Assembly: GCF_056746865.1 (NCBI RefSeq)
Contig: NZ_CM163382.1
Direction: 5' to 3' (one strand)
Length of the DNA: 64,000 nt
The notes beneath the pieces were generated by a model that had not been told where the DNA came from, searched no databases, and worked only from the letters and a program-made list of their open reading frames with translations. Shown here piece by piece: positions 3,945-4,369 of this stretch. The number at the start of each line of letters is the position of its first letter. Position 1 is the first letter of the stretch. The position numbers were made by a program, and so were the translations under genes.

Positions 3945-4369
3945 TTTCATATCCATATCCATATTCATTATGTTGCGCCATTTTGTGAATATTTAAGGGA
4001 AAATAAGTTCTGGACTAAGGCGATTTTTATTTGCATCTATTGAATTGTTATAAGTCCGATATAGGGGAGTGTCTATTTTATTTTTGATGGTTTTTTATGT
4101 GTAATTATAATTGTAAGAAATGTTATATTATTTAGTATTTACTGGGTGTATTGTTTTTTAATGCCTTAACCTCTTATTAAATATCATTTAAGTTGAATTG
4201 ACTTCAACGGATAGTATAAATTATTAGAACATCACATATTTTTGATTGGTTCTTTATTTATATTTCTTTCGTGAATATAAACACCAATCATGGTCTTGCG
4301 TTCCGTCAAAAAGGCCCGCTTTTATTTTTGTCGACTGGCGTGCAACGCTCTATTTCTAAGGAAATATAA

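Follow-up and report, generated by a model that had tools for sequence, protein, structure and literature searches.

In Escherichia coli K-12 MG1655, the stop codon of ydbL and the start of ydbA lie 19,185 bp apart, and the interval between them holds feaR, feaB, tynA, paaZ, paaA-K, paaX, paaY and ynbG (b1383-b4492 for the region including ydbL and ydbA). In the 64,000-nucleotide stretch of contig NZ_CM163382.1 (assembly GCF_056746865.1) analyzed here, which we call the window, ydbL is followed after only 425 bp by an autotransporter gene. The question raised by this locus is how it came to lack the catabolic cluster: as a site that was never occupied, by deletion, or by some other route. A sequence-only reading of this DNA took the short junction for the empty state of an island of about 19 kb. 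The feaR, feaB, tynA and paa genes that it gave for K-12 agree with the K-12 genome in both length and contents, and in the K-12 alignment that it proposed as a check ydbL and ydbA are not adjacent, so the outcome that would have overturned it did not occur. Gene order is otherwise the same in the two genomes: ldhA, ydbH, ynbE and ydbL lead up to the interval from the left, and the ydbA-position autotransporter, pdxI, ydbD and ynbA-B follow it on the right, but 19.2 kb of catabolic genes is missing from the window and the intergenic DNA is unrelated. The features of the locus are as follows.

792-3431, plus strand: ydbH, conserved left flank, 99.2% amino acid identity to K-12 YdbH
3428-3613, plus strand: ynbE, 100% amino acid identity to K-12
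3621-3944, plus strand: ydbL, DUF1318, 107 amino acids, a mosaic allele with its TAA stop codon at 3942-3944
3945-4369, no strand: spacer, 425 bp, AT-rich and free of open reading frames
3770-9085, no strand: divergent haplotype block of ~5.3 kb, running from the 3' part of ydbL across the spacer into the autotransporter gene, whose N-terminal and passenger regions it includes
4370-10189, plus strand: BigA/YdbA-family autotransporter gene at the ydbA position, an intact 5820-bp open reading frame of 1939 amino acids with its ATG at 4370
4663-4857, plus strand: 30-bp tandem repeat in the autotransporter gene, 6.5 copies, encoding PPDDGGDTPV
9086-10189, plus strand: conserved C-terminal part of the autotransporter gene (translocator/beta-barrel)
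10397-11257, plus strand: pdxI (ydbC), conserved right flank

A 1.5-kb query across the window junction is matched with 100% identity by E. coli 118UI (NZ_CP032515), whose RefSeq gene ends agree with those of the window at the junction. Strain 118UI belongs to ST69, phylogroup D (PMC8900328). Judged by this match, the source of the window is ST69-type (phylogroup D) E. coli, ST69 membership as such being established for the exact match 118UI only.

The absence of the cluster from the window is clear. When K-12 Fea and Paa proteins were compared with the full 64 kb by tblastn, no orthologue was found, only paralogous aldehyde dehydrogenases, which bears out the earlier claim that the feaRB-tynA-paa genes are missing. 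No cluster gene, and no remnant of one, lies between ydbL and the gene at the ydbA position. The description of the intervening 425 bp also held: GC content is 28.9%, compared to 48.7% for the whole window, and open reading frames confined to the spacer do not exceed about 41 amino acids. Among the small open reading frames of the spacer, examined as possible equivalents of ynbG, none is conserved.

We then compared the spacer with the corresponding DNA of other genomes. A blastn search (word size 7, no dust filter) against the K-12, B2 and O157 loci and against 46 outgroup loci, taken from a YdbL scan with one genome per species, matched only the ~25 nt before the ATG. This last part of the spacer, the Shine-Dalgarno region, is common to other autotransporter alleles, and when spacers from six haplotypes were aligned together, the Shine-Dalgarno/start region alone could be matched up. 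Neither K-12 intergenic region (ydbL-feaR or paaY-ydbA) can be aligned with the window spacer, and nor can the O157, XDL, E. whittamii or B2-type spacers outside those ~25 nt. At the junction itself, a search for target-site duplications, REP elements and IS ends returned only chance-level repeats of 10-18 nt, and direct and inverted repeats were likewise limited to short chance-level matches. Rfam gave one far sub-threshold hit within 3400-4800 (15.5 bits, gathering score 117), promoter-like sites in the spacer showed no excess (2 found versus 3.4 expected), RNA folding was unremarkable (z = -0.65), and one weak terminator-like hairpin was detected. The spacer would be the 5' regulatory or promoter region of the autotransporter gene, and its AT-richness would suit H-NS-type silencing.

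An empty site should be collinear with occupied genomes on both sides, and the window is not. In a blastn comparison of window positions 1-14000 with the K-12 region, homology was confined to 1-3942 and 9074-14000. A maximum chi-square scan against K-12 placed the left edge of divergence at 3770, inside ydbL (p = 1e-26), with 67 differences in 2978 bp over 792-3769 (2.2%) compared to 42 in 173 bp over 3770-3942 (24%). Up to 3769 the flank is about 97-99% identical to K-12, and ynbE and the 5' part of ydbL are 99% K-12-like. The 3' end of ydbL is only about 75-77% identical to K-12, with the K-12, B2 and MOD1-EC7003 alleles together at 73-75%, and it is 84-89% identical to the alleles of E. whittamii, Escherichia sp. 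E1V33, O157:H7, SCPM-O-B-8794 and E. albertii, the closest being those of E. whittamii (89%), E1V33 (86%) and O157 (85%). Among Escherichia alleles it is the K-12-type ydbL 3' end that is the outlier. Because a K-12-like 5' part is joined to a 3' end that groups with other Escherichia lineages, ydbL of the window appears to be a recombinant gene; its product matches DUF1318 across the whole protein (PF07027, 103 bits, cut-off 27).

The right edge lies inside the autotransporter gene. The sequence-only reading called this gene ydbA, which is right as to place and family and wrong as to allele. Its position between ydbL and pdxI and its C-terminal translocator are those of K-12 ydbA, and the 1939-amino-acid protein carries BigA_N (PF25784, residues 174-252, 90.1 bits, cut-off 24.5) and BigA_beta (PF25783, residues 1507-1591, 87.5 bits, cut-off 24.3). 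Overall, however, it shares only 42% identity with K-12 YdbA (reconstructed from three K-12 fragments), and over 4370-9073 blastn found no homology to K-12 ydbA other than one 98-bp patch. The DNA that the two genes share is limited to their start region and to the final ~1.1 kb. At about 9080-9086 the K-12, O157, XDL and window alleles converge, and over 9086-10189 nucleotide identity is ~95% to K-12 ydbA, 88% to O157 and 80% to the B2 type. The right flank from ~9085 is ~95-97% identical to K-12. By these comparisons we regard the downstream gene as the family and positional equivalent of ydbA and as a different allele from that of K-12. Homology to K-12 is thus lost from 3770 to ~9085, and the spacer is unrelated to the K-12 flanks of the cluster, so the window does not represent the empty state of a K-12-type site. 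The exact breakpoints and target-site scars that were to be looked for at the ydbL-ydbA junction are not there; the edges are instead at 3770 and ~9085.

Several other features of the autotransporter gene and its surroundings were observed. In strain S1-SRB-02-B the protein is 30 amino acids longer, with extra matches to the PPDDGGDTPV unit, and the copy number of the 30-bp repeat appears to differ between strains with the window haplotype. The gene has been inactivated repeatedly, being present as two open reading frames in O157 strain 10671 and split by IS2 and IS30 in K-12, whereas it is intact in the window. An ST131-like genome (locus L004, NZ_CP098219, 21626-30229) encodes a 2867-amino-acid autotransporter at the ydbA position under the RefSeq name "EntS/YbdA MFS transporter"; this label is evidently a naming error, with confusion of ydbA and ybdA as the probable cause. 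To the right of the gene, two intergenic patches of the window, 10181-10368 (autotransporter-pdxI) and 13866-13966 (ydbD-ynbA), are only 72-82% identical to K-12 and O157 and are far more divergent than the genes around them, and YnbA of the window is only 91% identical to that of K-12.

To place the junction among E. coli, we surveyed 5426 complete genomes, a sample whose counts are phylogenetically non-independent and sampling-biased. The spacer is present in exactly 141 of them, always as a single copy at ≥99% identity (at least 99%), and the remaining 5285 contain no homologue by blastn, including its distant mode. This distribution bears on the possibility that a collapsed or misjoined contig simply dropped the island. 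Draft assemblies are indeed interrupted here by repetitive autotransporter genes, and several outgroup contigs end just past ydbL, but the identical junction recurs in 141 complete genomes that are independent of one another and whose strains come from several continents and hosts, which refutes an assembly or annotation artifact and leaves it a vanishingly small probability.

The cluster itself is often missing from the species. The paaABC genes are present in 3147 of the 5426 genomes and absent from 2279 (42%), absence at the megablast level being compatible with very divergent homologues. About 4695 genomes retain some sequence of K-12 type, be it fea, paa or intergenic, and roughly 730 have none. 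Union counts obtained with chimeric queries over the same genomes showed that the 141 spacer genomes contain no paaABC anywhere in the genome (3147 + 141 = 3288) and no feaR or paaY remnant or K-12/B2-type intergenic DNA anywhere (4695 + 141 = 4836).

Structurally, the paa-negative state in E. coli has at least five different origins. The ST131/B2-type junction, found in 564 genomes, resembles the window in lacking paa catabolism and in having the autotransporter next, but it is a deletion scar (ydbL, feaR', 'paaY, autotransporter) that keeps K-12-type intergenic DNA together with 252 bp of feaR and 329 bp of paaY, and the window has no such scar. In the CUVET type, feaR', 'paaX and paaY are followed by pdxI, the autotransporter being missing too. 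The B2.3 type resembles the window in that ydbL is directly followed by a short AT-rich spacer (375 bp) and an intact autotransporter, but its ydbL is K-12-type and its spacer consists of K-12-type ydbL-feaR and paaY-ydbA intergenic DNA, with position 6271 of the K-12 locus (L002) joined to 25086. It is this B2.3 junction that truly represents a K-12-type site left empty or cleared by a clean deletion. It is the cleanest K-12-type island-less junction (locus L052, 9001-9375), with an ~18-bp extra difference after the hexamer GAAACA. This hexamer occurs at both K-12 ends (L002 6266-6271 in the ydbL-feaR intergenic region and 25053-25058 in the last paaY codons) and could have served as microhomology for the B2.3 deletion.

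In the O157:H7/E1V33 haplotype (~375 complete genomes), as in the window, ydbL is followed by a spacer of ~415 bp and the autotransporter in a scarless arrangement, the 324-bp ydbL allele is of the same class, and the Shine-Dalgarno/start region is conserved. It differs in that the spacer cannot be aligned, the N-terminal part of the autotransporter is ~53% identical in protein, the divergent tract runs leftward through ynbE into ydbH, and the O157 autotransporter is present as two open reading frames. The XDL/CE10 type (phylogroup-F-like) also lacks the island and has a spacer unlike the others; its passenger is related to that of the window. Such a passenger, 93-94% identical, occurs in 44-45 further genomes, CE10 and XDL among them. 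These were checked for the window spacer and for the island and had neither, their own spacer being of another sequence. In CE10, a neonatal-meningitis O7:K1 strain, an IS3-family element lies inside the spacer between ydbL and the autotransporter (locus L054, 4889-6102). A further observation concerns strain LP5-1 (NZ_CP101866), in which the match to the window ends after ynbE, at query position 235, and no ydbL is listed under the match; this suggests another structural variant, one in which ydbL has been removed.

These configurations speak to the simplest account of the window, namely that a K-12-type ancestor lost feaR-paaY in one deletion that left ydbL beside the autotransporter. Deletions are common here in E. 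coli, as the ST131-type, CUVET and B2.3 genomes illustrate, and the ydbL-feaR synteny of other genera described below indicates that the occupied state is old. A deletion in place should, however, leave K-12-type sequence on both sides, as it has in B2.3, and in the window non-K-12-type DNA makes up the 3' end of ydbL, all of the spacer and 4.7 kb of the autotransporter gene. In addition, 0 of 141 genomes have feaR, paaY or a K-12-type intergenic remnant. Because the real deletions (ST131, CUVET and B2.3) keep remnants and the window has none, allele replacement is favored over deletion. We regard deletion in place as very improbable and, on these comparisons, as largely refuted for the recent history of the window lineage.

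A different account is that the order ydbL-spacer-autotransporter is ancestral, that the cluster was inserted later on the way to K-12, and that the window kept or received the ancestral state. The outgroups bear on this directly. In other genera, feaR lies convergent and 7-84 bp downstream of ydbL and is followed by feaB and often by tynA and paa. This linkage was found in two Citrobacter species, two Pseudocitrobacter species, Pluralibacter, Cedecea davisae and three "Enterobacter"-like genomes; in Raoultella, feaR lies 3.8 kb from ydbL. Within Escherichia, SCPM-O-B-8794 combines ydbL-feaR linkage with a non-K-12-type ydbL allele. E1V33 has ydbL, a spacer and then the autotransporter, and E. 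whittamii (locus L009, ~10709-10830) retains, shortly before pdxI, a relic of the autotransporter start (the signal-peptide coding region) that is 81% identical to window positions 4350-4440. By this relic, the autotransporter has been deleted in E. whittamii, leaving the order ydbL-spacer-autotransporter start. In E. albertii (locus L008), ydbL leads directly to pdxI across 226 bp and the cluster is missing. In Citrobacter amalonaticus (locus L013), ydbL leads directly to ynbA across 117 bp. What lies between ydbL and ynbA varies among Enterobacteriaceae, and not in E. coli alone.

The scarless junction of the window, the same architecture in E1V33, O157, XDL/CE10 and the E. whittamii relic, and the lack of the cluster in E. 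albertii are what a primordial empty site would leave, and the outlier K-12-type ydbL 3' end would fit its import together with the cluster. Weighing against it, the position of feaR 7-84 bp from ydbL across genera and in SCPM-O-B-8794 implies that the linkage predates E. coli. Nor does the K-12 cluster bear the marks of a mobile island: the annotated 19-kb interval contains catabolic and regulatory genes and ynbG only, with no integrase or other recombinase, tRNA, or flanking IS or other mobile element. Because ydbL-feaR(-feaB) synteny is found in other genera, the cluster is likely to be old at the ydbL site, and given this old fea(-paa) linkage and the lack of an integrase, tRNA or mobile element in K-12, a history in which an island entered a vacant site is not the most parsimonious one. 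The word "island" in the sequence-only reading, if it means an insertion, does not fit this old occupancy. We consider an ancestral empty site unlikely, and the absence of the cluster from the window lineage may instead be derived.

The reading that we favor, and hold to be probable, is that the island-less block was placed by allele replacement through homologous recombination, and that the window is neither the product of a local deletion nor an untouched K-12-type site. Its basis is the abrupt shift in identity, from none over 3945-9073 to ~95% from ~9080, and the sharp, statistically supported change in divergence at the left end of the block has its counterpart at the right end. In its favor is also that ydbL, a spacer of ~400 bp and the autotransporter follow one another in O157, E1V33, XDL and CE10 as well and, in decayed form, in E. 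whittamii. Under this reading, deeply diverged Escherichia haplotypes would recombine at the highly polymorphic interval from ydbL to the autotransporter, with the ydbH-ynbE-ydbL 5' region as the left anchor and the autotransporter beta-barrel and pdxI as the right anchor. The incoming cassette of ~5.3 kb (3770 to ~9085) would have brought the ydbL 3' end, the 425-bp spacer and the autotransporter N-terminus and passenger, and no island, into a recipient lineage now represented by ST69-type strains.

Exchange between lineages at this locus has a likely precedent. The O157:H7-type ynbE-ydbL (strain 10671, locus L005, 20025-20544) is 99-100% identical to that of E1V33 (locus L010, 9808-10324) and only 74-79% identical to that of K-12, and its divergent tract enters the 3' part of ydbH. 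This near identity points to inter-lineage exchange at the locus and suggests that the O157 haplotype here was exchanged with a non-coli Escherichia lineage. For the window block, no donor with a near-identical block was found among the outgroup loci (one genome per species): the best ydbL 3' match is 89% and the spacer is absent. We infer the recombination event from mosaic structure alone, and if only the two alleles are compared, it could just as well be the K-12-type one that was imported.

A further suggestion, which we put forward tentatively and think somewhat doubtful, is that the 3' end of ydbL, together with the spacer and the passenger, is a trans-species polymorphism: deeply diverged cassettes that diversifying selection, with the BigA/YdbA surface protein as antigen or phage receptor, would maintain in Escherichia and that recombination would move between species and phylogroups. 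If this is true, the presence or absence of fea-tynA-paa would hitch-hike with autotransporter alleles and would not be selected for metabolism alone.

Absence of the paa region is in itself ordinary accessory-genome variation that has already been published for E. coli (PMC4951805). Goldstone et al. (2016, Sci Rep 6:30115; PMC4951805) used the term "region of genomic heterogeneity" for this locus, noted internal deletions, and reported that, within the stretch bounded by the core genes ydbH-ynbE-ydbL and ynbC-ynbD-azoR, the paa locus, ydbA and the following genes are variably present. That study concerns gene presence/absence in phylogroup A and mastitis isolates, and differs from the present analysis in giving no ST69-type junction sequence or mosaic breakpoints. 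What is refined here is that the junction lies inside a divergent block that was probably recombined and that its "ydbA" is another BigA/YdbA allele. The understanding of the pathway and of genome plasticity is unchanged, and what follows in practice is modest. "ydbA" at this locus is a set of very divergent alleles, which matters to annotation and pangenome studies, and scoring genes only as present or absent lumps deletions together with allele replacement. ST69 is a pandemic extra-intestinal pathogenic lineage. ST69-type cells are predicted to be unable to catabolize 2-phenylethylamine and phenylacetate by the Fea/TynA/Paa route, and these strains would encode an intact, antigenically different surface autotransporter whose K-12 counterpart is a pseudogene.
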